NCBI GenBank assembly: GCA_038065075.1
Contig: JBBTRQ010000023.1
Span: forward strand, 1 to 56,365
DNA from: Patescibacteria group bacterium
Lineage (GTDB): Bacteria > Patescibacteriota > Patescibacteriia > UBA9934 > GWF2-40-263
Direction: 5' to 3'
DNA: 56,365 nucleotides
Shown here: positions 4,639 through 56,365 of the stretch, piece after piece
Position numbering within the stretch: the stretch's first letter is position 1
How the letters are laid out: each line of letters opens with the position of its first letter
Program-made: the position numbers and the translations under genes
The notes under the pieces: generated by a model
What the model was told of the DNA's origin: nothing
Database searches by the model: none
What the model saw: the letters and a program-made list of their open reading frames with translations, nothing else

Positions 4639-5859
4639 ATGGCAAGTGCAGACCCTGTTCGAGTGGATACGAAGCGCCTCCAGTGGCTCCTGGAGCGTGT
4701 GACTGCGGGAGCTGACTGGATCTCGGACGCGCAGGTGGAAGCCTTCGGCCGCAGGCCGGATGGTCCCATCATGCCCAGCTCGCACATCGTGCTGCGTAGC
4801 GTCCGGCTCCTCGAAAGCTACGGGATGGACGAGAACGGCAAGCCGTTCATCAGCCCCGTCACGAACGGACCGGAACTCCCGGTCGTGCAGGTCGCAGCTA
4901 ACCGCGCGGGGGAATGCTTCCTCCTGGCGCGCTGCGCGAGCGGCTACGTGATGGATACCTACGAGCTCGAGGCACCCAACCCCCAGACCATCCTGCACTT
5001 CGGCACGTACGGCCACGAGACCGCACGCGGACACGAGATCGCCACGTACGACCTGACCAGGGCGAGCATCCTGGGCTTCACGGCAGAAGGAGTGCCGGTC
5101 ATGTCCCAGTGGTCCAGTACGCTTGAAAAGGGGGAGGCCCCGCGTTCTTTCACGGGAGTCTGGCAGGGCGACCAGCTCATGGAACACGAGAGCACGAGCC
5201 CGTGGGAGTCCGTCGGCTTCGCGCGTGTCAGCTACGACGGGACGATCCTCTCGACGCTGCGCAACGTGCGTGACCACGCCATCCTGCGCAACGGCAAGGT
5301 GGTCGCTGGCTCGCCGCCCAACCTCGTCTCCATTGACGAGATGGCCGCGACCGCCAACGGCGAGATCTTCACCCTGTCGCGTCCCCACTCCAAAGTGCCG
5401 TACAGCCTGCTCCCGTTCTACGACGCGGTCTGGCAGCAGCCCCTCGTGGTGGGGCGTGGCGCCGAGCTCTTCGACCTCCTCTCCACGCGCCTGGGCGTGG
5501 TCGTGATCGGCAGCGACTACCGTCGTGTACACGCCTACGTTGTGGAGTCGAACATCATCGGTGGCCACTACACCGGCACCGTCATCCACCTGCACGACCT
5601 AGGACCCAAGGACGAGTACCGACGCGGGTACACGCCGCTCTCGGAAACCGACTGCGCCTATGTCCGCCGCTCGCGTGACGGGATGGAGCAGTGGGCGTTC
5701 CGACTGGGCGGCGAGGGCAATGCCGTCTTCTCCCACGGCCCCAGCTTCGACCGCGTGAGCGAACTCTTCCGCCACGGCGACGCCTTCCACTACTGGGCGG
5801 TCGCCGACCGCTACCTCCACCTGGTCAAAATTCCAGACGTTCCTGCGTCGAACCTCTGA
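4639..5859 (+). CDS. hypothetical protein (406 aa) in a GC-rich cassette
   Basis: Longest ORF of a GC-rich block; the 371-aa antisense ORF and several others are shadows. AAGGAG lies 6 nt before the ATG. No family recognised. Confidence 0.6.
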   Translation: MASADPVRVDTKRLQWLLERVTAGADWISDAQVEAFGRRPDGPIMPSSHIVLRSVRLLESYGMDENGKPFISPVTNGPELPVVQVAANRAGECFLLARCASGYVMDTYELEAPNPQTILHFGTYGHETARGHEIATYDLTRASILGFTAEGVPVMSQWSSTLEKGEAPRSFTGVWQGDQLMEHESTSPWESVGFARVSYDGTILSTLRNVRDHAILRNGKVVAGSPPNLVSIDEMAATANGEIFTLSRPHSKVPYSLLPFYDAVWQQPLVVGRGAELFDLLSTRLGVVVIGSDYRRVHAYVVESNIIGGHYTGTVIHLHDLGPKDEYRRGYTPLSETDCAYVRRSRDGMEQWAFRLGGEGNAVFSHGPSFDRVSELFRHGDAFHYWAVADRYLHLVKIPDVPASNL

Positions 5860-5894
5860 CCCTCTCTCCGGTGTCCCTCGCGACACCGGGCTCG

Positions 5895-5922
5895 CCCGCC
5901 ATAGCTTCACAGCGACGGCGGG
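5895..5922 (+). terminator. CCGCCATAGC..GCGACGGCGG hairpin element copy followed by a T-run (likely terminator of ORF 4639-5859)
   Basis: CCCGCCATAGCTTCACAGCGACGGCGGG followed by TTTTCATTTT. Confidence 0.55.
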
Positions 5923-6132
5923 TTTTCATTTTCCGCCCATTTGTCGGTGGCCCCGCCTACGACCTGGTTGAAACAACCTCATCCCAATCTATCGACGTAC
6001 CAGAAGATCCTCCCATCATTTGCGCGTGAGTCGCCGATACGTTCAGGAAAAAGAGAAGGGAGACGATGACGGTGATGGTTTTTCTCATATTGATGATGAT
6101 GTTGTGTGTGTTCTGACGGATCCGGAACGTGG

Positions 6133-7346: not shown

Positions 7347-7430
7347 CCCTCCGTCATTAATTACTTAACCCCGCGTGAGCCCTCCACCAAAGCCTTGGCG
7401 ACGGTGGACCGCTTGCCGGCATATTTTTAT

Positions 7431-16111: not shown

Positions 16112-17257
16112 TCAGGCTAATCGCATATTCGGATCAGCCTTAAGCGTGAGCGGATCCACGAATTCTCCTCGAGCCGCTTTCATAAGTCCGGCCGCGCCGA
16201 TCATCGCGGCGTTATCGCCGGTGAGAGAAAGATCGGGTGCGTGAAAGGTCACCAACGGGTCGAGCTCGAAGAGTTTTTGTTTCAGCGTTTCGCGCAGAGC
16301 TCGGCTCGCTGACACGCCTCCAGACAGGATCACCGACTTGGGACTCGTCGCCTGAACGGCCTTGAGGGTCTTGTGTACCAACACGTCGACGACGGCCTGG
16401 AGGAAACTGGCAGAGATATCCGCGACGGTTACCGCACCACTGTGATCTGCGGCCTCCCTCCCACCCCCCCTAGCCCCCCCTCGGGCAGGGGGGGAACCTC
16501 GTCCTGAATCAAGATAGACTCGCACGGCGGTCTTCAACCCAGCGAAGCTGAAATCGAAATCGTCCGAGTCGATCATGGGGCGAGGAAACGCGACAAAGGC
16601 GGAATCTCCGTCACGAGCGGCCTTCTCAATCTTGGGTCCACCCGGATACTCCATCCCCAAGAGCTTCGCGACTTTGTCGAATGCCTCCCCTGCGGCGTCG
16701 TCACGTGTCATGCCCAGCAACTCGTACTTCCCATGGTCGCGCATGAGGATGAGCTCGGTGTGCCCGCCGGAGACGAGGAGGCACAGGGCGGGAAACCGAG
16801 GATTCAAACGCCCTTCAGGGCGGTCGAATGCAGACGCCCCTCCCGCCGTCGCCAAGGCTATGGCGGGCAGGAAAGGGGCTTTGAAATCAGACAGCCACAC
16901 AGAATAAATGTGTCCCTCAAGATGGTTCACGGCTACAAGAGGTTTCTTCCACGCCCACGCGAGGGTCTTGCCGAGCTCGACTCCCACACGCAGAGCCGGC
17001 ACGAGTCCCGGTCCTGCTGTCACCGCAACCGCGTCGATCCCGGTTCCATCGTGCGCGATGCCTACTTCCTGCAGGAGCGGAATGATCCACGCCGCGTGCT
17101 CGCGCGCCGCCACTTCCGGCACCACGCCGCCGTACTGGGCATGAATCTTTGCTTGGGAGGACGTGATATTTTTTTCGATCACAAACACACCATCGGTCAG
17201 CGACACGACCGCGATGGAGGTTTCGTCACAACTGGTTTCGATGGCGAGGATACGCAT
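16112..17257 (-). CDS. tsaD: tRNA N6-adenosine threonylcarbamoyltransferase TsaD, with two in-frame repeat-derived insertions
   Basis: MRILAIETSCDETS, VSGGHTELI and the Kae1/TsaD fold are present. The start is set at ATG 17257; the track ORF extends to 17308. Confidence 0.9.
   Translation of the reverse strand: MRILAIETSCDETSIAVVSLTDGVFVIEKNITSSQAKIHAQYGGVVPEVAAREHAAWIIPLLQEVGIAHDGTGIDAVAVTAGPGLVPALRVGVELGKTLAWAWKKPLVAVNHLEGHIYSVWLSDFKAPFLPAIALATAGGASAFDRPEGRLNPRFPALCLLVSGGHTELILMRDHGKYELLGMTRDDAAGEAFDKVAKLLGMEYPGGPKIEKAARDGDSAFVAFPRPMIDSDDFDFSFAGLKTAVRVYLDSGRGSPPARGGARGGGREAADHSGAVTVADISASFLQAVVDVLVHKTLKAVQATSPKSVILSGGVSASRALRETLKQKLFELDPLVTFHAPDLSLTGDNAAMIGAAGLMKAARGEFVDPLTLKADPNMRLA
16836..16879 (-). 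repeat. hairpin element copy inside tsaD coding sequence
   Basis: Sense strand GCCCCTTTCCTGCCCGCCATAGCCTTGGCGACGGCGGGAGGGGC is translated as ..FLPAIALATAGGA... Confidence 0.8.
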
Positions 17258-23081: not shown

Positions 23082-23311
23082 ACACATCGGTACTGATTTA
23101 TCTCCTCGAAGAACACCCTCGGTACATGAAGCAGACACAAAAACTGCTCACACGAATCGAGCGCGGTTCTGCACGAGGAATTTTTTCAATTGTTGGAATG
23201 ATCGAGCTATTGACAGGAGTTAAGCGTCAAGGACGGCGAGATCTGGCACAAGACTACAAAATCCTCCTCTCTCGCTTTCCAAACCTCGATTCCAATTCAC
23301 AGCCCCTTTAG
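23060..23311 (+). pseudogene. PIN-domain (VapC-like) toxin, apparently C-terminally truncated (83 aa)
   Basis: LIGLDTSVLIYLLEE is a PIN N-terminus. The ORF stops after ~83 aa, where two GC hairpins (GCCCCTTTAGGGGC, GGGGCTAAAGCCCC) begin; typical PIN toxins are ~130 aa. Confidence 0.5.
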
Positions 23312-23352
23312 GGGCGTCCGTATGAGACGGGGCTAAAGCCCCTATGAATATT

Positions 23353-41780: not shown

Positions 41781-42401
41781 TTATTTGATCACCTTATCAA
41801 CCAATCCGTACTTCACCGCTTCATTGGCCTCGAGGAAATAATCGCGCTCGGTATCGCGTTCCACGTCCGATTTTTTCTTTCCCGTGTGCTGGGCGAGGAT
41901 GTTGTTGAGTTGGTCCTTAATCTTCAAAATACGCTCGGCATGGATTTTGATATCGGTTGCCTGTCCTGATACACCGCCGAGGACCTGATGAATCATCACC
42001 TCCGAGTTTGGAAGCACAAAACGCTTTCCTTTCGCGCCCGCGGCCAAGAGAACCGCTCCCATGCTCGCCGCCATGCCCACGCAAATCGTCGACACATCCG
42101 GCTTCACGTACTGCATCGCATCGTAGATCGCGAGTCCCGCGGTAACGGAACCTCCCGGGGAGTTGATGTAGATCTTGATGTCCTTGGTCTTATCCTGGCT
42201 CTCCAAGAACAACAGCTGGGCGATCACCAAGTTCGCGACGACGTCATCAATTTCTGTTCCCAGAAAAACGATGCGGTCTTTCAAGAGACGTGAATAGATG
42301 TCATAGGCTCGTTCTCCGTCATGAGATTTTTCAATGACGGTTGGAATCAAGATCGAGTCGATGGGGTCGTGGAATGTGGAGGTGATATCAAGGTTATTCA
42401 T
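41781..42401 (-). CDS. clpP: ATP-dependent Clp protease proteolytic subunit
   Basis: [19 protein letters not shown].., [14 protein letters not shown] (catalytic Ser), MIHQ. Confidence 0.95.
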
Positions 42402-42413
42402 ACGCAGGTCATT

Positions 42414-43391
42414 CTAGCGTGTTTGTACGAGCTTTTCCACCCGCCAACATCCATCCTCCCCACACATGAGCCTAGACTCTGGAATGATATAGCCGGCCGC
42501 ACGTTTGTGTCCCCCGCCGCCCTGTGCCTTCGCAATCTCCGAGACATCACGCGTAAGCGATCGCATGGAGACCTTCACATGACCGTCCGCTGTCTCACGG
42601 TACACGCGCAGGGTGTCGATATCCGTGACGAGGTTAAGGAAATTAGACAGCCCGTCTATCTCGTCATCGCTGACTTGATTGTCTTCGATGTCCGCTCGTG
42701 TGAGGTACGTGCTGATCATGTTCTGCTCGCGATCTTCCTCGATCCGCTCAAGCGCCACGCCCCACACGCGCAGAGCCGAAACGGAACGATTGTGGAACAT
42801 GGCATGAATCACATCCTGCACGCGCGCGCCACTCAGTACCAATTTGGAGGCGGCATCCAGCGCCCGTTCATCCGTCGCGGCATTCGAGAACGCCGTCGTA
42901 TCAAAACACAGTCCTGTAAGCAGACACGTCGCCGCGTCTCGAGAGGGAACGATCTGATTCTCTTCGAAGAATCGATGAACAATCGCGGCGGTGGCAGGCG
43001 CTCCGTCCACAACTTGGTTCACATGGCCATAGCGACTGTTGGTGGTGTGATGGTCGATATTGATGACTTGGGGGTTGCCTGGAATTCTCTCAACAAGACC
43101 TCGAACAAATTCCGCATCGGAACAATCAAACACGACCACGAGGTCGACCTCTGGATTATCAAAAATCTGAAGGCTCGTCGTGCACTGGTGGGCGCGAGGA
43201 AGCCGACGATATTGTTCTGGCACGGTAGTCGCCACATACACCGGCACGGTCTTCCCGAGCGTCGCCATAAAATCCGCCATCGCGAGAGCGGACCCAAGGC
43301 TATCACCATCGATCCGTTCATCCGAAATGAACACCGGTTCATGAGCTTTCACGAGCAGATCGTAGATTTGTTTGTGGAGATAGGATTCCAT
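42414..43391 (-). CDS. nrnA: DHH/DHHA1 phosphoesterase (NrnA-like oligoribonuclease/pAp phosphatase)
   Basis: DGDSLGS, NIDHH and GGGHKRAAG motifs. Confidence 0.85.
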   Translation of the reverse strand: MESYLHKQIYDLLVKAHEPVFISDERIDGDSLGSALAMADFMATLGKTVPVYVATTVPEQYRRLPRAHQCTTSLQIFDNPEVDLVVVFDCSDAEFVRGLVERIPGNPQVINIDHHTTNSRYGHVNQVVDGAPATAAIVHRFFEENQIVPSRDAATCLLTGLCFDTTAFSNAATDERALDAASKLVLSGARVQDVIHAMFHNRSVSALRVWGVALERIEEDREQNMISTYLTRADIEDNQVSDDEIDGLSNFLNLVTDIDTLRVYRETADGHVKVSMRSLTRDVSEIAKAQGGGGHKRAAGYIIPESRLMCGEDGCWRVEKLVQTR

Positions 43392-43476
43392 AGTTCGACA
43401 GGCTCACTATCTATAGGGAGCCGCACACTCTATCCTACCCCAAAGCGATGGTCAACCATGTTATAATCGTTTCACT

Positions 43477-45798
43477 ATGCACCTGATGAAATTGGAGCTC
43501 CAGGGTTTCAAGACGTTCGCCAAAAAAACCGCGCTTTCTTTTTTGCCCCCAACCGATGTGCGTTCCCCTATTACCGCCGTGGTGGGCCCAAATGGTTCTG
43601 GAAAATCCAACCTCGCCGACGCCATCCGCTGGGTCCTGGGCGAGCAGAGTTTGAAGCTCCTGCGTGGCAAGGAATCGCAGGATGTTATTTTTTCGGGCTC
43701 GCAAGGAAAGGGTCGTGCAGGGTTTGCCGAGGTGAGCTTGAGCCTTAATAATGAGGACGGCTCCATGCCCATTGACTATGGCCATGTGACCATCACGCGT
43801 CGCCTCTTCCGCGATGGCACCAGTGAATATCTCTTGAACGAATCTCACGTCCGACTCCAAGACATCCAACTTCTGCTCGCCCAGGCCAACGTCGGCCAGC
43901 GCTCGTACTCCGTGATCGGCCAGGGGATGATCGATCACATCTTGGTCTCGACACCCGAGGAGCGCAAAGCGTTCTTTGATGATGCGACAGGTGTGAAGCC
44001 GTTTCAGTTGAAGCGCCATGAGGCCGTACTCAAACTCAAACGCACGCACGAAAACTTAGCGGATGTCGAGATGCTCTTGCGCGAGATTGAACCGCGCCTG
44101 CGTTCCCTCAAGCGCCAGGCTCAACGGCTCGAGCAACGCGATGAGATCGAACAAAAACTTCACGCGCTGGAAGCCGACTACTACGGCGCGCAGTGGTGGA
44201 CGCTCATCGACCAACTCGACGCCGTGAAGCGACAGTTCGAGGAGGCCGATGATAAAATCAAACTCGAGCGCAAAGAGTTGACGGACTTGGAGCGCGCAGC
44301 AGAGAAACTTGAAAAGTCAGAGACCGGTGACGACGGCCTCGCGGCGCTCCAGACTTCGTATCGCGCGGTGCAAAAAAAACAACATGAGAACCGCCAAGCG
44401 CAATTTGAGACCGAGAAAGAAATCGAGCTCACCAAGGTGCGCGCGCAGAGTAACTGGGCGCCTCTGCCGCTGCTGAAGATCGTCGAGGAGGTGGGGGCGA
44501 TCACGGAGGGGATCAAGGGACTCAAAGGCTTCAAAGGCGTCGAGGAAATTCACAAGGCTGTCGACGAACTTCTTAAGAAATCCTCGAGCCTGCGCAAACA
44601 CCTCGAGCGGCCAAATCCCGAGGACATCAAGCCCGATCCCAAGCTCCTCGAGAAACTCAAAGACCTCAAAGCGCAAGAGAGCAAGATCCAAAAAGAGCTC
44701 ACGGGCCTGGAGGCGCAGATCGACGCGTACGCCACCCAGGAAAGATCGGAGCGAACCGAGCTCATCGAACAACAAAAGACTCTACGCGAGAAGCAACGAC
44801 AGATTCATCTCTTCGAAAACCGACGCAATGAATTACAAATCGACGTGGCACGCTATGAGGAGCGCCAACAGGCTCTCACTCGCGAGATGAACGAGTTCAT
44901 GAAAGACCGCGCGGTAGAGGTTCGGTCGCATCGTCTGGACACTTCACGCTCCACGACTCACGATTCAGACTCCTACGCCGAAATCCAGCGCCTGCGCTAC
45001 AAACTCGAGCTTATCGGCGGCATCGATCCGGAGATCATGAAAGAATACGAGGAGACGCGCACGCGCCACGCGTTCCTCGACGGCCAAGTGAGCGATCTCC
45101 ACAAGGCTCTGCGCGACACGGAAAAAGTCATTGTGGAACTGGACGAGCAGATCGAGAAACAGTCCAAGGCGGTGTTTGGGAAAATCGATCGTGAGTTTGA
45201 ACGGTATTTCAAATTGCTGTTTGGGGGAGGATCGTGTCGGTTGGTGAAGCTCACACGCGAGGATGCAGATGAGGTAGCCCCAGGCTTCCCTGCCCGCCAT
45301 AGCTTTAGCGACGGCGGGAGCCTGGGCGAAGCCGAAGGTGTGACACCGGATCGCGCCTTTGCCGATACGGGCGAAGGAGAGCGAGACCGGGAAGACATCA
45401 TCGCCAAGAAACTGCAGAAGCACCAAGACCCCGTGATCGGCATCGACATCCAAGCGACGCCACCGGGGAAAAAACTCAAGGCGCTCAATCTGCTCTCCGG
45501 CGGCGAGCGCGCGCTCACCTCAATCGCGCTCATCAGCGCCATCATGGCCGTGAACCCAAGCCCGTTCGTGTTGCTCGACGAGGTCGATGCGGCACTGGAT
45601 GAGTCCAACACCATCCGCTTTGCCTCCATCCTGCAAGAGCTCTCAGAAAAATCTCAGTTCATCATCATCACGCATAACCGCGCGACCATGGAACAGGCTG
45701 ACGTCCTCTACGGCGTCACGATGGGCGATGAGGGGATCTCCAATCTGCTGTCGATTCATCTGGAAGAAGTCTCAAACGGCGCAACGGCAAGACGATAA
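43477..45798 (+). CDS. smc: SMC chromosome-condensation ATPase, unusually short (773 aa), carrying an in-frame hairpin element
   Basis: N-head VVGPNGSGKSNLADAIRWVLGEQS..LRG..DVIFSGS; C-head PPGKKLKALNLLSGGERALTSIALI..VLLDEVDAALDESN. No hinge-type segment was recognised by eye. Confidence 0.85.
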   Translation: MHLMKLELQGFKTFAKKTALSFLPPTDVRSPITAVVGPNGSGKSNLADAIRWVLGEQSLKLLRGKESQDVIFSGSQGKGRAGFAEVSLSLNNEDGSMPIDYGHVTITRRLFRDGTSEYLLNESHVRLQDIQLLLAQANVGQRSYSVIGQGMIDHILVSTPEERKAFFDDATGVKPFQLKRHEAVLKLKRTHENLADVEMLLREIEPRLRSLKRQAQRLEQRDEIEQKLHALEADYYGAQWWTLIDQLDAVKRQFEEADDKIKLERKELTDLERAAEKLEKSETGDDGLAALQTSYRAVQKKQHENRQAQFETEKEIELTKVRAQSNWAPLPLLKIVEEVGAITEGIKGLKGFKGVEEIHKAVDELLKKSSSLRKHLERPNPEDIKPDPKLLEKLKDLKAQESKIQKELTGLEAQIDAYATQERSERTELIEQQKTLREKQRQIHLFENRRNELQIDVARYEERQQALTREMNEFMKDRAVEVRSHRLDTSRSTTHDSDSYAEIQRLRYKLELIGGIDPEIMKEYEETRTRHAFLDGQVSDLHKALRDTEKVIVELDEQIEKQSKAVFGKIDREFERYFKLLFGGGSCRLVKLTREDADEVAPGFPARHSFSDGGSLGEAEGVTPDRAFADTGEGERDREDIIAKKLQKHQDPVIGIDIQATPPGKKLKALNLLSGGERALTSIALISAIMAVNPSPFVLLDEVDAALDESNTIRFASILQELSEKSQFIIITHNRATMEQADVLYGVTMGDEGISNLLSIHLEEVSNGATARR
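45279..45326 (+). repeat. hairpin element copy inside smc
   Basis: CCCAGGCTTCCCTGCCCGCCATAGCTTTAGCGACGGCGGGAGCCTGGG is translated as APGFPARHSFSDGGSLG. Confidence 0.85.
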
Positions 45799-46034: not shown

Positions 46035-46139
46035 GACTCACCCCTTTCGCTTGGCCACTTGTCTATAATAGAGCTAACCACGACGCACAACTTTGTACAA
46101 CAAAACACACCCCAGAGATGGGATGTGTTTTGTTTATGT

Positions 46140-46197
46140 CCTCAACTGAGTCTTCGACCCTGAGTCTATAGAAGGGTCGACTTCTCGGTTGAAGAGG
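46140..46197. repeat. attC-like imperfect palindrome E1
   Basis: CCTCAACTGAGTCTTCGACCCTGAGTCTATAGAAGGGTCGACTTCTCGGTTGAAGAGG. Confidence 0.8.
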
Positions 46198-46682: not shown

Positions 46683-46700
46683 GGAGCAGTTCTTTATTTT

Positions 46701-46742
46701 CCTCAACTGAGTCTTCGAGGTAACTCGATTCCTCGGTTGAGG
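46701..46742. repeat. attC-like imperfect palindrome E2
   Basis: CCTCAACTGAGTCTTCGAGGTAACTCGATTCCTCGGTTGAGG. Confidence 0.8.
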
Positions 46743-47469
46743 ACCCCGGCAGTCGACACGTGATTGGCGCTTTCGCACCACGTCGGCCGGGGCAGGTCGT
46801 CTAGAGGCCCCGGTCGACTTCACAAGTCGTGCCGGGATCCTCGTTCCCCTGACTTTTTGGCGCGCGCAGGGGGGGCGCAGATCAATGATCCCGCAGGAAG
46901 GACATCGTCCCTCCTTTCCTTGCTCAGTGCCCGGGTGATAACCTAGTGGGCAAAGGGATGAGGTCGCTCATCCTCCGAGTCGATGCGTCGACCAGCGTGT
47001 CGTTAACCTCCACGAGCCAGGAGTATTCAGATTAACCCGACTTCATCGGGAGGCCTAATACTGAAGGCCTGTTTTCCCATGCTTTGGCGCGACCCTTTAG
47101 GACGTTGCCGTCCACCGACGCCTCAAGGTTTCCCTCGAGCGGTTGCTCCAACAGGTTTGCTACGTACTCAGGTGCTGTCCCCTTTCCTCACGCTCTGTTG
47201 TGCAAACCGGCATAGTGCGCCGGGTTGTCTGTATTATCCGCGTCTGGGCGACAACTTGGTCTTACGACCCCCAGACGTTTCCTAGTGTTGCTCGGGCATG
47301 AACCCTCCTCCATACCTGGTGGTTCAGAACGTCACGACGACCAGGATTTCGTCGAGACACCAGACATCTCGCTCATGGTCGGCGAGCCACGTGTGGCCGC
47401 GGACCGAGAGGAGACGTCCGAAACGAATCACCCCGTTCGAGAAGACAACCATGCTCAGCATGATCTCCT

Positions 47470-47524
47470 CCTCAACTGAGTCTTCGACCCTGAGTCTATC
47501 GAAGGGTCGACTTCTCGGTTGAGG
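47470..47524. repeat. attC-like imperfect palindrome E3 (near-identical to E1)
   Basis: CCTCAACTGAGTCTTCGACCCTGAGTCTATCGAAGGGTCGACTTCTCGGTTGAGG. Confidence 0.8.
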
Positions 47525-47565
47525 AGCCCGGCGCGAGGACGGACTCCTCGGGTCGGGCGCGTGGG

Positions 47566-48910: not shown

Positions 48911-48953
48911 AAAACCGCTCTGTGAGGAGCGGCTATGCGTGCGTCGATCGCCA
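48911..48953 (-). terminator. shared 3' module/terminator (copy 1)
   Basis: Minus-strand sense TGGCGATCGACGCACGCATAGCCGCTCCTCACAGAGCGGTTTT. It matches 50234-50275 apart from a 1-nt indel. Confidence 0.65.
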
Positions 48954-49446: not shown

Positions 49447-49487
49447 GACGTCTCCTGGGGGTTGGGTACAACTTCACCGTGAAGTTT

Positions 49488-49535
49488 CCCTCAACTGACA
49501 CGTCGAGATTTCGCTCGACGGTTCGGTTGAAGGGG
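49488..49535. repeat. attC-like imperfect palindrome E4
   Basis: CCCTCAACTGACACGTCGAGATTTCGCTCGACGGTTCGGTTGAAGGGG. Confidence 0.75.
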
Positions 49536-49546
49536 CGCCACAGTCT

Positions 49547-49816: not shown

Positions 49817-49848
49817 CAGTAGCAACCTCGCAAGAGGTTGTTTTGTTT

Positions 49849-49892
49849 CCCTCAACCGACGCGCCAAGCGACACTTAGCGAGTCAGTTGAGG
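49849..49892. repeat. attC-like imperfect palindrome E5
   Basis: CCCTCAACCGACGCGCCAAGCGACACTTAGCGAGTCAGTTGAGG. Confidence 0.75.
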
Positions 49893-50233
49893 ACCCCGGC
49901 CGACGTGGCGCTTGAGCGCCACGAGCGTCCCCGTGAGTACGAAATCCTCGAGGACGACCTGCACGACTTTGGCCGTGAGAGCCGCCTTGAGCGCTCTGTT
50001 TCCCGGCTTACTCTGGCAATGCATTGGGTCTCCTTCCCAACCAACGCTGGCTGAAAAAAAATTGGATGTCGTCAAACACCTGCTCGACGTACGTGGAGGG
50101 CAGATCGCAAATAACGATCTGCCCTATGCGCGCGTGGTCAAGCAAGAGACGACAAGCTACCATTTTTGCACGTTCTGTCAAGACGGGTGCTTGAAATATC
50201 CCATTATTTCAGCCGATTTTTTGGCCAATAGAA

Positions 50234-50960: not shown

Positions 50961-51036
50961 GCCGCCATCCCCCCTACGCCAAGGCTTCGGGGGGCAAGCC
51001 GTCAAACACGCTCATGTTTAGACGAACAATACCCTT

Positions 51037-51494: not shown

Positions 51495-52607
51495 TTGGTT
51501 TATATGATCCAGTCACGCCACGAACAATTTGAAACACTCTTTCCCTCCGAGCCTGCGTTTCGATGGAAGCAAATCGAAGGTGCGTTTTTTTCGTCGGCAA
51601 AAAGTTGGGACGACGTGACGACCATCTCAAAGTCGATGCGCGAGAAGCTGGCAGTCATCCCATGGATGAGCGTTACCTCACAGACAGTTCAAGTCAGCGG
51701 TAACGGGGACACGCACAAGGCGCTTCTCAGAGTCGAGGGCGACAAGGAAATCGAAACCGTCCTCATGAAAAACCGTGCGGGTGCCTGGACGATCTGCGTC
51801 TCATCTCAAGTGGGCTGTGCCATGCGCTGTGGTTTTTGCGCGACCGGCAAGATGGGTCTCACACGCAGTCTCATCGCCGACGAGATCGTGGACCAGTATC
51901 GATTTTGGCAACGATATCTGGTAGACCCGGGCTTTCCTGCCAGCCATAGCTTTAGCGACGGCGGGAGCCCGGGCGCACCCAGGCTGAAGCCTGGGACTAC
52001 CGAGAGAATCAGCAACATCGTCTTCATGGGCATGGGCGAGCCGCTCGCCAACTACGAGGAAGTAAAGCTGACGCTCAACACCCTTTTGAAATTTACCGAC
52101 CTTGGCGAGACCCGCCTCATGGTCTCCACCGTGGGCGTGCTCCCACGACTCGAACAGCTCCTCACGGACCCAGAGTGGCCACACGTGCGTCTGGCCGTTT
52201 CGCTTCACTCCGCTATCGAAGAGACACGCAAAAAAATCGTACCAACCAGTTACGACGAATTTCTTCCTAAACTATCCGACTGGGCGAAGCGCTACCTTCA
52301 AAAATTCGGCAATCGCCGTCACCACCTCACCTTTGAATACGTCATGCTCAAGGGCGTGAACGACTCACCCGCGCATGCCAAGGCGCTGGCCGTCTTCGTG
52401 AACCGCATCGGACGGATCAAGGTCAATCTCATTCCCTACAACCTTACGGACTGCGAATATCAACGGTCAACGGACACGACGATCACCGCCTTTCTTGATA
52501 CCCTCGCGCGCAATCACGTCACGGCCACCATCCGCCACACGATGGGTGACGACATCAATGCCGCCTGCGGACAGCTCATCGTCAATCAAACGGCCACGAC
52601 CGAGTAA
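51495..52607 (+). CDS. rlmN: 23S rRNA/tRNA adenine-C2 methyltransferase RlmN (radical SAM), carrying an in-frame hairpin element
   Basis: CAMRCGFCATG, NIVFMGMGEPLANY and a C-terminal ..CGQL motif. Confidence 0.9.
   Translation: MVYMIQSRHEQFETLFPSEPAFRWKQIEGAFFSSAKSWDDVTTISKSMREKLAVIPWMSVTSQTVQVSGNGDTHKALLRVEGDKEIETVLMKNRAGAWTICVSSQVGCAMRCGFCATGKMGLTRSLIADEIVDQYRFWQRYLVDPGFPASHSFSDGGSPGAPRLKPGTTERISNIVFMGMGEPLANYEEVKLTLNTLLKFTDLGETRLMVSTVGVLPRLEQLLTDPEWPHVRLAVSLHSAIEETRKKIVPTSYDEFLPKLSDWAKRYLQKFGNRRHHLTFEYVMLKGVNDSPAHAKALAVFVNRIGRIKVNLIPYNLTDCEYQRSTDTTITAFLDTLARNHVTATIRHTMGDDINAACGQLIVNQTATTE
51926..51973 (+). repeat. hairpin element copy inside rlmN
   Basis: CCCGGGCTTTCCTGCCAGCCATAGCTTTAGCGACGGCGGGAGCCCGGG is translated as DPGFPASHSFSDGGSPG. 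It is followed by the short hairpin CCCAGGCTGAAGCCTGGG (51978-51995). Confidence 0.85.
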
Positions 52608-52666
52608 CCCATTGAGCTTGACAGCCGCGGCGGGGCTGTGCTAGTCTCTAAGCACAACTGAAGAAA

Positions 52667-52785
52667 ACGTATTCAGAGTGTAGCGAGGGAACTAGCCCGA
52701 TGACCTGCCCGCAACCTACTCGCAAGAGCAAGGTGCGACCTCTAGCCCCGCAAGGGGAAAGATGCAACGGCAAAGCTGAATACGT
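52667..52785 (+). promoter_or_regulatory. SAM-I (S-box)-like riboswitch aptamer
   Basis: P1 is ACGTATTCAG/CTGAATACGT. The core AGAGTGTAGCGAGGGAACTAGCCCGATGACCTGCCCGCAACC..GGTGCGACCTCTAGCC..CCCCGCAAGGGGAAAGATG matches the conserved S-box string GAGGGA-CUGGCCCGAUGA-CC-GGCAACC..GGUGC..GAAAGAUG. P3 covaries (CGCAACC/GGTGCG). Confidence 0.65.
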
Positions 52786-52913
52786 CGCCCACAAGGCGAT
52801 CGTTTTGTTTAGACGATCCCCCTGCAGGCGACGTATTCGCCAAACCGTCTGATTAAGCGCGTCTTTCCATCATGGGAAGGCGCGTTTGTTCTTTCACAAC
52901 CAGGGAGGACGGC

Positions 52914-53153
52914 ATGACCGACCACAACCCAGAGCCCGACGACTTCGTCTTCAACGACACGGCGCCGGCCGGACTCGCGCGATCGCCATACGGCTGCGCA
53001 GACGAGGACGCACTCATCCGCGAACTGGACTTCCGCCGCGCCCGTGAACGGTTAGAGCAGGGTCTGGATCCGCTCACCGGCAAGCCCTACAACCGCTCGG
53101 TGGATCCCTTCGCCACCACCTGGGATCTGGAGCCGATCGAGGAGTCATTGTGA
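52914..53153 (+). CDS. hypothetical acidic protein (79 aa), GC-rich
   Basis: GGGAGG lies 5 nt before ATG 52914. It is the first ORF after the riboswitch and its hairpins. Confidence 0.5.
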   Translation: MTDHNPEPDDFVFNDTAPAGLARSPYGCADEDALIRELDFRRARERLEQGLDPLTGKPYNRSVDPFATTWDLEPIEESL

Positions 53154-53374
53154 TCCTCTTCCAACCCTGTTCGTACCATTATCCGGAACTACTCGGATAC
53201 GAGCGACTCGAGTGGGCCGCGAGCATGGGTCGAGCGCATGATCGCAAGACGCGGTGTCTTCCTCGTGCCCGAGAAACCTGGCCGCCTTGAAAAACGACGC
53301 GGTCGTGAACACCTCACGACCCTTTTCCCCGCCCTGCGACATTCCGTCGTAGGGCGGGGACGAAGGAGCCCATC

Positions 53375-53806
53375 ATGTCCGTCATCGCTCTGGAACGTCC
53401 GGCTATCGAGGCTGTGCTCATCCGTGTTGACCCTCAAGAGTTCGAGCGTCAGCGTTTGCGCTTCACATCCGGTCTGCGCGTCCCTGGCCTCGCTCGCTAC
53501 GAACTCCGCGGCACTCCCGTCCGCTTCGCAGGAGTGAGTCAGGGTGGAGGAATCGACTCGCACTCGAGCAAGCGCGTCGGTGTGTTCGTGGAACGGTCAG
53601 GAGCATCTGGACTCTACGAGCCGCCGCACGAAGCAGTGCGCTCGTGCGATCTTCTCGTCGTCGTGCGTGCCCCAACAGCACGAGAACGAGCGGAAAGCCC
53701 ACTCAAACTCAGCGCCCTGAGGATCGTCGAGGCCGTTCGACTGCGTCCGGGCTCGCTCGAAGGCTTGGAAAGCCTTGAGATCACCGAACCGTTCGTCGTC
53801 TGCTGA
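53375..53806 (+). CDS. hypothetical protein (143 aa), GC-rich
   Basis: AAGGAG lies 6 nt before the ATG. No family recognised. Confidence 0.5.
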   Translation: MSVIALERPAIEAVLIRVDPQEFERQRLRFTSGLRVPGLARYELRGTPVRFAGVSQGGGIDSHSSKRVGVFVERSGASGLYEPPHEAVRSCDLLVVVRAPTARERAESPLKLSALRIVEAVRLRPGSLEGLESLEITEPFVVC

Positions 53807-53890
53807 ACCAACGAGCAGCGGTACGATCCGCTGCTTTTTCTTGACGAGCGACGCTGGATTCTCTAGGCTCCCCTTGAAAGGAGAGAGCCG

Positions 53891-54313
53891 ATGAGTCTCA
53901 CCGAACGTCCCAAGTGGCGCATGACCCGCTGCGAAGCGCAGGTGATCCTGGATCTGGAGGCGCTGAATCGCGCCCTGCGCGCGCCCGAGCGCTGGGTACC
54001 AGAGCCGCTCATCACGCTCTTGATGAGTGCGCGCAAGGGCGGCCGACCGCATGTCACTCTGCGTACGCTCAAGAAGCAGGGCTATGTCGAGTACGACCCG
54101 ACCCAGCTGGCCTGGCGCCGAACCGGCAAGCCGGTTCCTCGACCCGAAGTGCTGTCGGGCGACGCGCCCAACCCGATCCCGCAAGACGCCATGAGCCGGC
54201 TCGCGACTGCATGGAGACGCGGACGTCGCTCCTTCACGCTGGAGGATCTCGCCGCAACGCCGCCGGATCTCAAGGGCGTTCCCAAGTCCAGTCCCAAACG
54301 CGGCCGCGCATGA
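53891..54313 (+). CDS. hypothetical basic protein (140 aa), possibly wHTH, GC-rich
   Basis: AAGGAG lies 7 nt before the ATG. The segment ..VTLRTLKKQGYVEYD.. is winged-helix-like. Confidence 0.45.
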   Translation: MSLTERPKWRMTRCEAQVILDLEALNRALRAPERWVPEPLITLLMSARKGGRPHVTLRTLKKQGYVEYDPTQLAWRRTGKPVPRPEVLSGDAPNPIPQDAMSRLATAWRRGRRSFTLEDLAATPPDLKGVPKSSPKRGRA

Positions 54314-54358
54314 GCCGCAAACGCAAAGCGGCCCTTCGATCAACTCAGGGTCGCCTCG

Positions 54359-54388
54359 CCCGCCATAGCTCGTCAGAGCGACGGCGGG
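54359..54388. repeat. hairpin element copy at the convergent junction, overlapping the last codons of trmD
   Basis: CCCGCCATAGCTCGTCAGAGCGACGGCGGG. The trmD end ..KKYPPSL* is encoded by its right arm. Confidence 0.8.
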
Positions 54389-55044
54389 TATTTCTTTTTG
54401 GATTCTTCCTCTCGCCACTGGGCGATTTTTTTGTGATCGCCGGAGAGAAGAACCTCGGGGACCTTCCAGCCTTTGTAGTCTTCCGGCTTCGTATACTGCG
54501 GATATTCTTGATAGCCTTCCTCGCTGTGCGATTCCTGTTTGAGCGACTCCGCCTCAATGACACCGGGCACCATCCGGGCAACGGCATCGATCATGACCAT
54601 GGCTGGAAGCTCGCCACCGGTGAGCACGTAGTTCCCGATCGAGAGCGCCTCATTAGCGATGTGCTCGGTTACGCGGTGGTCGATCCCCTCGTAGCGCCCG
54701 CACAGGAAAATGAGTTGATCGTATTTCGCTAAACGTCTGGCATCTTCTTGCGTGAACGTCTTTCCCGAAGCCGCCGTCACGATGACTCGCGTTTTTTTCA
54801 ACCGTCGTTTCACCTTCTTCACCGCTTTCTCAAACGGCTCCACCTTCATGACCATGCCGGCGCCGCCCCCATAGGGTGTGTCATCGACTTTGTGATGTTT
54901 GTCCGTTGACCAGTCACGTAACTGGTGGGCACGCACCTCAATGAGTTTCGCCTTCTGTGCCCGACCCAAAATCGACGCGCCCACGTAGGGCTCGACGACT
55001 TCGGGAAAGATGGTAATCACATCAAATTGAATCCTTTTGCGCAT
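54373..55044 (-). CDS. trmD: tRNA (guanine37-N1)-methyltransferase
   Basis: FDVITIFPEVVEPY.., GRYEGIDHRV, LSIGNYVLTGGELPAMVMIDAV. Confidence 0.92.
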   Translation of the reverse strand: MRKRIQFDVITIFPEVVEPYVGASILGRAQKAKLIEVRAHQLRDWSTDKHHKVDDTPYGGGAGMVMKVEPFEKAVKKVKRRLKKTRVIVTAASGKTFTQEDARRLAKYDQLIFLCGRYEGIDHRVTEHIANEALSIGNYVLTGGELPAMVMIDAVARMVPGVIEAESLKQESHSEEGYQEYPQYTKPEDYKGWKVPEVLLSGDHKKIAQWREEESKKKYPPSL

Positions 55045-55625: not shown

Positions 55626-55837
55626 GCCCGCGCTCATTACAACTAAATCTTCTCCAAATCATACACATGGCTTGTAAGTAGCCATAAGACAACTTGTCTT
55701 TTGTATGATTGCAACGTTTATTCCCCGCCCGCCGTAGCTCGCAAGAGCGAAGGCTGGGCAGTCCGCCATAGCCCGCAAGGACAACGGTGGACGAAATAGC
55801 AGAGCCCTTCGACCGAGCATAGCTCGGCTCAGGGCAT

Positions 55838-56365
<528 letters not shown>

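Follow-up and report, generated by a model that had tools for sequence, protein, structure and literature searches.

In-frame palindromic repeats in housekeeping genes are already known as a kind. The repetitive extragenic palindromes (REPs) tagged with GTAG are G+C-rich stem-loops, the intragenic in-frame copies of which encode 10-30 aa in known proteins (Di Nocera et al. 2013, PMC3733652), and the REPINs, in which two inverted REPs flank a spacer, have also been described (Bertels & Rainey 2011, PMC3116915). Moreover, TnpA-REP has been found to recognise an imperfect stem together with a 5' unpaired motif (PMC8266576). In the present work a stretch of 56,365 nucleotides from a Patescibacteria group bacterium (hereafter the window) was analysed, in which a 48-nt palindrome, CCCAGGCTTCCCTGCCCGCCATAGCTTTAGCGACGGCGGGAGCCTGGG, lies within the smc gene at 45279-45326 of the + strand. 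Our reading, to which we give a probability of about 0.72, is that this palindrome is a pair of non-autonomous hairpin repeats, one nested in the other, which the gene carries as a translated passenger and which spread as mobile units.

The smc gene (43477-45798, + strand; 773 aa, from its open reading frame (ORF) and translation) encodes a short-coiled-coil SMC of the type usual for Candidatus Uhrbacteria, and it is from the names of the Smc homologues that the organism is assigned to that group of the candidate phyla radiation (CPR, or Patescibacteria). The 120 orthologues listed are 59-87% identical and carry SMC_N/AAA Pfam domains. The Smc proteins of the Uhrbacteria clade are unusually short (~715-780 aa), and two Uhrbacteria orthologues, P0015 and P0059, measure 1076-1220 aa and contain an intein and LAGLIDADG domains (PF14890, PF14528). 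The possibility of a split smc, involving an upstream same-strand ORF (42321-43466, 381 aa), was considered and rejected, as that ORF is spurious and the 773-aa smc is intact. Both the sequence and the ORF confirm the earlier note on this DNA in that the palindrome keeps the reading frame: its predicted peptide is APGFPARHSFSDGGSLG, and the predicted translation across the insert runs ..EVAPGFPARHSFSDGGSLGEAEG...

Initially, the palindrome had been taken for one inserted element. The insertion holds, since orthologues without it exist, but two elements are involved, a 30-nt core unit standing in the loop of an older REP-like hairpin. The outer, GTAG-tagged hairpin (45274-45326, + strand) is composed of GTAG at 45274-45277, a C, the stem CCCAGGCT (45279-45286), the loop TC (45287-45288) and, beyond the unit that now splits it, the stem AGCCTGGG (45319-45326). 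The core unit, CCTGCCCGCCATAGCTTTAGCGACGGCGGG (45289-45318, + strand), lies between the loop TC and the AGCC of the stem, with the layout CCTGC-CCGCCATAGC-loop-GCGACGGCGG-G, a predicted peptide PARHSFSDGG and a covariance-model score of 57.4 bits. On either strand, and whether taken as RNA or as DNA, the composite folds into a nested hairpin (z about -2.8 to -3.0). The core pattern CCGCCATAGC-N(0-14)-GCGACGGCGG occurs exactly five times in the window, against 0.00 expected from shuffles, and a sixth copy, in rlmN, differs from it by one substitution; a scan of the window with a covariance model of the core gives six strong copies (34-57 bits) and four weak ones.

The orthologues of Smc provide empty, half-filled and filled alleles of this site. 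The linker had been described as normally short, which proved mistaken: about 48 aa between LFGGGSC.LVKLT and GIDIQATPPGK (..EGVTPDRAFADTGEEERDKE..KHQDPVI) are common to most of the 120 orthologues listed, and only the 17 aa of the palindrome peptide are lineage-specific, being found solely in the query and in an identical fragment, P0069. Alleles lacking the element, which an alignment of orthologues had been expected to reveal, were found for Smc, RlmN and TsaD. The smc of L125 (P0004) has neither outer hairpin nor core, while those of L123 (P0009) and L121 (P0002) read GAG GTA GCC CCA GGC TTC AGC CTG GG, that is, the hairpin CCCAGGCT-TC-AGCCTGGG with GTAG ahead and with no core. In the codon alignment of filled and empty alleles, the smc of the window equals this latter type plus 30 nt between the loop TC and AGCC, with no target duplication. 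At the identical loop position L124 carries a different 30-nt insert, and further relatives have unrelated G+C-rich inserts at that site (PPLTKGGLGG-type and GAPLVGAH-type). Since several relatives bear other inserts at it, the linker site is an insertion hotspot; and because the closest relatives have the outer hairpin only, another insert, or nothing, the comparison shows the segment, at the level of sequence, to be an inserted repeat of two nested elements and not an ancestral peptide.

Two other explanations of the locus can be judged on the same alleles. The first, that the segment is an ordinary ancestral part of the linker with incidental palindromy, finds some ground in the long and variable linker of Uhrbacteria Smc; it is refuted by the orthologue comparison, in which no orthologues sharing the peptide with ordinary divergence were seen, and the DNA of the segment matches exactly a repeat family of which no copy is expected by chance, so that we give it almost no credence. 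The second is an artefact of metagenome assembly, through chimeric joins or mis-assembled hairpins, as might be feared for a multi-copy repeat in an assembly of metagenome type. It is equally hard to credit: on either side of each copy the sequence runs collinear with the orthologous gene or rRNA of relatives, the alleles recur in independent assemblies (the P0069 Smc fragment; P0121 RlmN, with 99% identity; P0241 on 4 contigs), and a repeat of 24-30 nt should lie below the usual assembly k-mers.

The same nesting is found in two other housekeeping genes. Sister copies had been announced in rlmN, in the same frame, and in tsaD, in another, and both are present (51926-51973, and 16836-16879 on the minus strand); that list was correct for smc, rlmN and tsaD but missed copies at 5896-5921, 54360-54387 and 55907-55934 and two in the 16S leader. 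In rlmN, an inverted, REPIN-like doublet of REPs lies in frame at 51921-52000 (+ strand). Its first unit is GTAG-A-CCCGGGCT-TT-(core, 51936-51965)-AGCCCGGG, with the core in the loop, and after a CGCA spacer comes the second unit, CCCAGGCT-GA-AGCCTGGG-A-CTAC (51978-52000). The palindrome at 51926-51973 is read in the frame used in smc, with a predicted peptide PGFPASHSFSDGGSPG. The relative L128 (P0135) has the doublet and lacks the core (GTAG-C-CCCAGGCT-TC-AGCCTGGG-CGAA-CCCGGGCT-AA-AGCCCGGG-G-CTAC). The RlmN linker measures 39 aa in the window, with an ancestral length of 19 aa and 19-24 aa in L125, L126 and L127, which have no doublet.

In tsaD, the in-frame hairpin doublet occupies 16809-16879 of the minus strand, where the ancestral linker of the protein measures 15-17 aa. 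Its first hairpin is GCCCCT-TT-(core, 16842-16871)-AGGGGC (16836-16879) and its second CGCCCT-GA-AGGGCG (16809-16822); the copy is read in a frame other than that of smc and rlmN, with a predicted peptide FLPAIALATAGG. L130 (P0245) and others show the empty form, GCC CCT TTA GGG GCG followed by the second hairpin, and in the relative closest to the window, L129 (P0242), the 30-nt unit also stands between TT and AGGGGC, in a decayed form. The loop alleles are not the same among orthologous tsaD copies (CTTG vs TTCA), and both are frequent across the core family; such discrete alleles suggest re-insertion or conversion over drift. A fourth composite copy lies antisense at another TsaD site of the relative L130. 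The insertion point in smc, rlmN and tsaD is alike: ..CT-TY^[CCTGC-core-G]^AG...

Further inserts of similar appearance were observed around these genes. A second in-frame insert in tsaD (GSPPARGGARGGG, 16415-16522, minus strand) has a C7/G7 hairpin base, and L130 has at the equivalent place a different REP-type insert (CHCEEGIDRRSTKQSRDCFACARNDK); inserts of the PPL.KGG.GG and VIASEAKQS types recur in the Smc and TsaD of relatives. Between ORFs, at 23302-23315, there is an empty tsaD-type hairpin (ATTCACA-GCCCCTTTAGGGGC-GTCCG), and the outer hairpin is therefore itself a dispersed repeat.

The outer stems of the three genic copies differ and remain complementary, in which the earlier note had seen selection on a hairpin. 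This did not stand, as the stems belong to different pre-existing host hairpins, found empty in P0009/P0002, P0135 and P0245; they reflect no compensatory evolution and therefore provide no evidence of selection on the hairpin. The outer stems also bear on the possibility that the palindromes were made locally by replication template switching at hairpins (quasi-palindrome correction or hairpin extension), with a convergent similarity. Intrastrand templating could yield the paired change of the outer stem, CCCAGGCT/AGCCTGGG in L128 vs CCCGGGCT/AGCCCGGG in the window, and the placement of the inserts exactly at hairpin apices, with no target duplication, would also be in keeping with it. However, template switching cannot explain why one 30-nt sequence, with an identical non-complementary AUA/GAC loop and CCTG tail, recurs at four sites unrelated to one another and in hundreds of unrelated genomes, and the unit is not templated by its flanks; we regard this origin as very improbable.

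As for the kind to which the outer hairpins belong, the stem-loop that defines GTAG REPs (20-40 bp; stem of 5-13 bp; short loop, often TY) is recognisable as CCCAGGCT-TC-AGCCTGGG in the smc and rlmN of relatives and as CCCGGGCT-TT-AGCCCGGG and CCCAGGCT-GA-AGCCTGGG in the rlmN of the window. The unpaired GTAG stands at 45274-45277 and 51921-51924, with CTAC at 51997-52000; it is missing from the tsaD-type hairpin (ATTTCAAA/ATTCAAA flanks) and from the 30-nt core, the tail of which is CYTGY. Three GTAG units and two to three tsaD-type units were counted in the 56 kb, one window of the genome. Inverted REPs with a spacer, as in REPINs, occur in the rlmN of the window, in that of L128 and in the tsaD doublet, and the smc copy is a singlet. 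On account of the GTAG tag, the 6-8 bp stems, the 2-nt TY/GA loops, the inverted doublets and the paired stem variants, the closest known kind for the outer smc and rlmN hairpins would be the GTAG-tagged REPs and REPINs. Miniature inverted-repeat transposable elements, defined by terminal inverted repeats derived from insertion sequences (ISs) and by target duplication, are a poorer match, as no duplication is found and the unit is a single hairpin.

The inserts were also examined on structural models, as had been proposed, and in both Smc and RlmN they fall in predicted disordered loops of low confidence. In the AlphaFold2 model of Smc, residues 601-617 lie inside the unstructured segment of lowest confidence (600-623, pLDDT<50), between a head beta-strand and the helix preceding the signature-motif strand. 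The RlmN model has a mean pLDDT of 88, and its insert forms a coil (141-168, about 50-69) which holds the only segment of the model with pLDDT<50. This fits with passenger peptides, as predicted by translation, in disordered surface loops. Moreover, the rlmN copy reads CCAGCC, an uncompensated C-to-A change, and the tsaD copy of L129 reads CCACC and GGCGGA, with two uncompensated G-to-A changes; because these stem changes are uncompensated, the genic copies look like near-neutral remnants in slow decay. A structural constraint at the level of the family could come from the mobilising machinery or from a function at non-genic sites.

Outside protein genes, the core is found in the rRNA region of the window. 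By alignment with the Rfam small-subunit (SSU) model, helix 6 (V1) of the 16S rRNA (55899-55942, + strand; core 55907-55934) contains the exact core CCGCCATAGC-CCGCAAGG-GCGACGGCGG. L127, with a 16S 95.5% identical, and L052 (84%) have a different helix 6 with a common tip, GCGATTACATCAA, and for this reason the helix 6 of the window is best described as exchanged whole for the repeat core, its length (28 nt) being nearly equal to theirs (25 nt). The tip of helix 6 is known to accept insertions in E. coli 16S rRNA (PMC2441807). Helix 6 was rejected as the source of the repeat, as the helix of relatives differs and the core is cross-phylum. Upstream, two degenerate core copies stand in tandem in the 16S leader (55727-55757 and 55761-55791, + strand), between a conserved promoter/leader block and the first base of the 16S; neither L125 nor L126, the leaders of which are otherwise 93-98% identical, nor L127 has them, and L052 has one core copy at the same place in opposite orientation. 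A core copy was also noticed directly 3' of the 16S of L127 (L127 14206-14248). Finally, the 16S of the window reads GTGCCAGCAGCAGCGGTAATAC at 56320-56345, vs GCCGCGG in the Rfam bacterial SSU consensus, which may matter for primer matching.

The remaining copies of the window are intergenic or diverged. One copy (5888-5929, + strand; core 5896-5921; 37.8 bits), directly downstream of the ORF 4639-5859, is followed by GTTTTCATTTT and is terminator-like, although a simple terminator scan skipped it, its stem being interrupted. Another (54352-54395, + strand; core 54360-54387; 37.7 bits) is also terminator-like with its U-run, and the terminator-like scan matches part of it. The 5896 and 54360 copies have the U-run of an intrinsic terminator, and those of smc, rlmN and tsaD are intragenic and have none. 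A diverged copy, CCACC-AAA-GC..GC-GAC-GGTGG (7376-7415, + strand; 19.8 bits, E=0.017), shows a compensated stem and keeps the purine loop, and a weak candidate, CCCCC-GAA-GC-CTTG-GC-GTA-GGGGG (50961-51001, minus strand; 14.9 bits, E=0.22), is assigned with low confidence.

The core is not confined to this lineage. When one-genome-per-species contigs were searched for the exact 20-nt core with a variable tip, at least 124 copies in at least 120 genome stretches were found; the matches listed include Saccharibacteria and other CPR, Verrucomicrobiota, Lentisphaerae, Kiritimatiellae, Planctomycetota, Desulfobacterota, Acidobacteria and Bacteroidota, as well as Bradyrhizobium and Rickettsiales, and the core is also present in 58 viral contigs. 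The notion of a selfish DNA peculiar to one lineage does not survive this spread over many phyla and viral contigs. The CCTGC-tailed subtype was found in at least 120 metagenome stretches, in contexts of 34-74% G+C. In other organisms, in-frame copies occur in genuine proteins: in MetH, between the B12-binding and activation domains (PARHSLGDGGS), antisense in an SNF2-family helicase (L037, PAVAQGAMAG), and in a viral SbcC/SMC-like protein and a TPR protein. Furthermore, the Bradyrhizobium copies (contexts L032, L036 and L057) lie within GTAG-GGTGGGCA...TGCCCACC hairpins. The GTAG-14 REPs of this genus have structured GCGG/CCGC-ended loops of up to 27 bp (PMC3733652), and since those three contexts show the core inside GTAG hairpins, the large GTAG-14 loop is probably the same core nested in a REP.

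The family has the form of an imperfect stem, CCCGCC-AUA-GC-loop-GC-GAC-GGCGGG, with a 5' CCTG tail, and its conserved flanks can be written (G)CYTGY-[core]-R. The tip covaries (GCUC-GCA-GAGC, GCCC-GAA-GGGC, GCC-UU-GGC), as does the closing pair, which the search pattern left free (n=125: U-A 54, C-G 30, other standard pairs 11, unpaired 30), and diverged copies show compensated stems (CCACC/GGTGG, CAGCC/GGCTG). In a census of the scaffold CCGCC-NNN-GC...GC-NNN-GGCGG over 1.57 Mb of loci, the internal loop was ATA/GAC in 189 cases, followed by GAA/GAA (10), ATA/GAA and GTA/GAA (4 each), GAA/GTA (2) and AAA/GAC (1), and a Watson-Crick triplet was found in none. Since the stems covary and yet the loop never turns Watson-Crick, a purine-rich 3x3 internal loop (R-W-A / G-A-M) is obligatory in the core family. 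As identities for this loop, the K-turn, the sarcin-ricin/loop-E motif, the 11-nt GNRA receptor and domain V of group II introns were rejected by reasoning only, as their geometry or flanks do not suit a 3x3 A-U-A/G-A-C loop. Rfam 15 gave no match for the element, at gathering or E<=10, and none for the core in 18 loci from other phyla; literal text searches for the DNA core and the encoded peptides returned nothing relevant, and the core sequence is absent from the supplements of PMC3733652.

This conservation opens the question of whether selection maintains the core across many phyla as a functional RNA module. The similarity of the copies would then stem from function and not from mobility, and those in genes and rRNA would be exaptations or by-products. 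As candidate roles, a protein-binding or stabilising hairpin with a structured purine loop, a terminator or a 5'-UTR element can be mentioned. The conserved non-Watson-Crick loop with covarying stems and closing pair, the resemblance of two window copies to intrinsic terminators, the presence of the core in viral contigs and its place as the apical part of helix 6 in a 16S rRNA would all suit such a module, as would an about two-fold enrichment on the antisense strand, where 43 of the 275 unique copies have a Shine-Dalgarno sequence and a start codon no more than 45 nt downstream, against ~21 expected. On the other hand, positions shift between close relatives, the leader, helix-6 and genic copies all being lineage-specific; genic copies stand in both orientations and decay uncompensated; U-runs follow 12 of the 275 unique copies, about the background rate; and no Rfam family is matched. 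The module is for these reasons unlikely as a full account, and function and mobility are compatible, as REPs show both. Two narrower proposals were rejected: a generic terminator for the whole family, U-runs being at background rate, and a strict sense-orientation rule, as for an RNA-level element, given the antisense genic copies in the L130 TsaD and the L037 helicase.

For the reading as two nested, mobile hairpin repeats, the following course emerges, the insertions of which are shown by the alleles. A GTAG-C-CCCAGGCT-TC-AGCCTGGG hairpin first entered, in frame, the already long and variable linker of the C-terminal head of Smc, and in the lineage of the window the 30-nt unit was then placed exactly at the 3' edge of the outer loop, as at the same relative position in rlmN and tsaD. 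The unit belongs to the hairpin family of many phyla and viral contigs, which elsewhere in this genome takes terminator-like, 16S-leader and helix-6 positions. It may spread as a structure-recognised single-stranded DNA hairpin, in a REP/REPIN-like manner via HUH/Y1 enzymes, or by hairpin-to-hairpin conversion, and it would favour exposed hairpin apices. Genic copies would survive only in disordered surface loops, and there only with an open frame and a length divisible by three. The turnover is lineage-specific, the leader and helix-6 copies being absent in close relatives.

Several points weigh against this reading, besides the antisense enrichment just described. By Pfam labels, no gene for a transposase, a REP-associated tyrosine transposase (RAYT) or an HUH enzyme was found in the 56-kb window or in ~115 kb from relatives, and no Pfam match was obtained for the 10 ORFs adjoining copies, in an island at 52.6-54.4 kb or in a repeat region at 46-50 kb; a gene of L079 bracketed by two copies reads, by eye and with no family search run, as RidA/YjgF-like and not as a transposase. 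An identical 20-nt core across distant phyla is unusual for a co-evolving REP-RAYT system and could indicate selection for a host function. The copy number of this genome is known from one 56-kb window alone, and the polarity of the change, insertion vs precise excision, rests on parsimony over ranks of orthologue identity, with no tree. Finally, only ~13% of the cross-phylum copies lie within an outer stem that pairs perfectly over 6 bp or more, vs 3% by chance; apex targeting is a tendency and not a rule, and its universal version is only partly supported.

A related, more tentative possibility, which we hold to be clearly less probable than not, is that the 30-nt unit represents a class of its own among replicators, an ultra-small hairpin, or else a hairpin module with universal recognition, which distant phyla and their viruses share in nearly unaltered form and which homes to hairpin apices. 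It would be defined by the CYTGY tail and the obligatory purine 3x3 loop, REPs in genes and helix 6 would be among its targets, and a widespread enzyme, not a lineage-specific RAYT, would mobilise or bind it. In loci of other phyla (L195, L285, L286, L014 and L093) the core was observed at a fixed position inside another widespread palindrome type, of the forms GTCATTCCG^AGC.AAGCGAGGAATC and GTCATTGCGAGCG..AAGCGAAGCAATCC, which also occurs as peptide inserts (VIASEAKQS...) in the TsaD of Uhrbacteria relatives.

Regarding the surroundings of these copies, a 1.77-kb island (52608-54400) lies between rlmN and trmD and has the 54352-54395 core copy with its U-run at its end. The two genes are adjacent in L125 and L127, and in L126 two small ORFs stand between them. 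The island contains a match to the S-adenosylmethionine (SAM) riboswitch (52666-52768; 47.3 bits vs a cut-off of 44.4), followed by three + strand ORFs of 93, 143 and 140 aa with no Pfam match. Between 46139 and 49900 there are five copies of another hairpin family, CCTCAACTGA...TCGGTTGAGGA(C/G)CCCGG (46139-46196, 46696-46750, 47469-47532, 49484-49536 and 49845-49900), with a conserved outer stem and a variable interior, the neighbouring ORFs of which have no Pfam match. In addition, a 39-nt repeat occurs at 48922 and 50244.

The case extends the in-frame palindromic passengers of essential proteins, known from Rickettsia and some REP-rich bacteria, to the reduced genomes of CPR, and one 56-kb window has three housekeeping genes and a 16S rRNA affected. 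The filled, half-filled and empty alleles constitute an unusually clean record of stepwise nested colonisation. From a practical point of view, the inserts lengthen CPR proteins and seed recurrent pseudo-motifs (PARHS[FL][SG]DGG, PAVA.AMAG) in metagenomic protein databases, and core copies alter the V1 region used in 16S typing. Should an enzyme or binding factor be dedicated to the cross-phylum core, a new testable system of structure-specific DNA or RNA recognition would be at hand. No description of the combination of a CPR host, a hairpin within a hairpin, a pan-phylum core with an obligatory purine loop and the replacement of helix 6 was found in the literature searched.

When compared with the known systems, the fungal mitochondrial GC clusters and double-hairpin elements are similar as tiny G+C-rich hairpins found in frame in protein and rRNA genes. 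They differ in being organellar, and the likeness is one of form, with no known sequence or mechanistic link. As regards REP-targeting ISs, IS1397, ISKpn1 and ISPpu9/10 target REP hairpins. They share with the present case a hairpin repeat as preferred target for another mobile element; however, they are full insertion sequences with a transposase, whereas the incoming element here is a 30-nt hairpin. The location of ISPpu9 in REPs is noted in PMC8450116. The rRNA genes of CPR are known for insertions (PMC11270868), a source that makes no mention of helix 6 or palindromes; here, in contrast, helix 6 is replaced at similar length by a genome-wide repeat and is not expanded by an intron or intervening sequence.

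The Rickettsia palindromic elements (RPEs), proposed by the earlier note as the precedent, hold as an analogue: they too are in-frame palindromes in housekeeping protein genes and RNA genes, translated and tolerated at surface sites, and in the window Smc, RlmN and TsaD are full-length, with conserved motifs flanking the insert and orthologues that lack it. The likeness is by description; the host lineage is another, and the units here are of 18-30 nt, G+C-rich and nested. RPE-1, for its part, is ~100-150 bp long and A+T-rich. The closer kind is that of the GTAG-tagged REPs and REPINs, with their documented intragenic in-frame copies, and RPE-4 and RPE-6 have themselves been equated with CGTC-tagged REPs (PMC3733652). 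With REPs and REPINs are shared the stems of 6-9 bp, the GTAG unpaired at one end, the 2-nt TY loops, the inverted doublets and the paired-stem sub-families, as well as an imperfect palindrome with a bulge and a 5' motif, the features recognised by TnpA-REP (PMC8266576). The differences lie in the host, a CPR bacterium (Uhrbacteria) outside those surveys, and above all in the inner 30-nt unit: its tail is CYTGY, not GTAG or CGTC; it is identical across phyla, whereas REPs are normally lineage- or RAYT-specific; and it behaves as a module of its own, lodging in an rRNA helix and in the loops of other hairpins.

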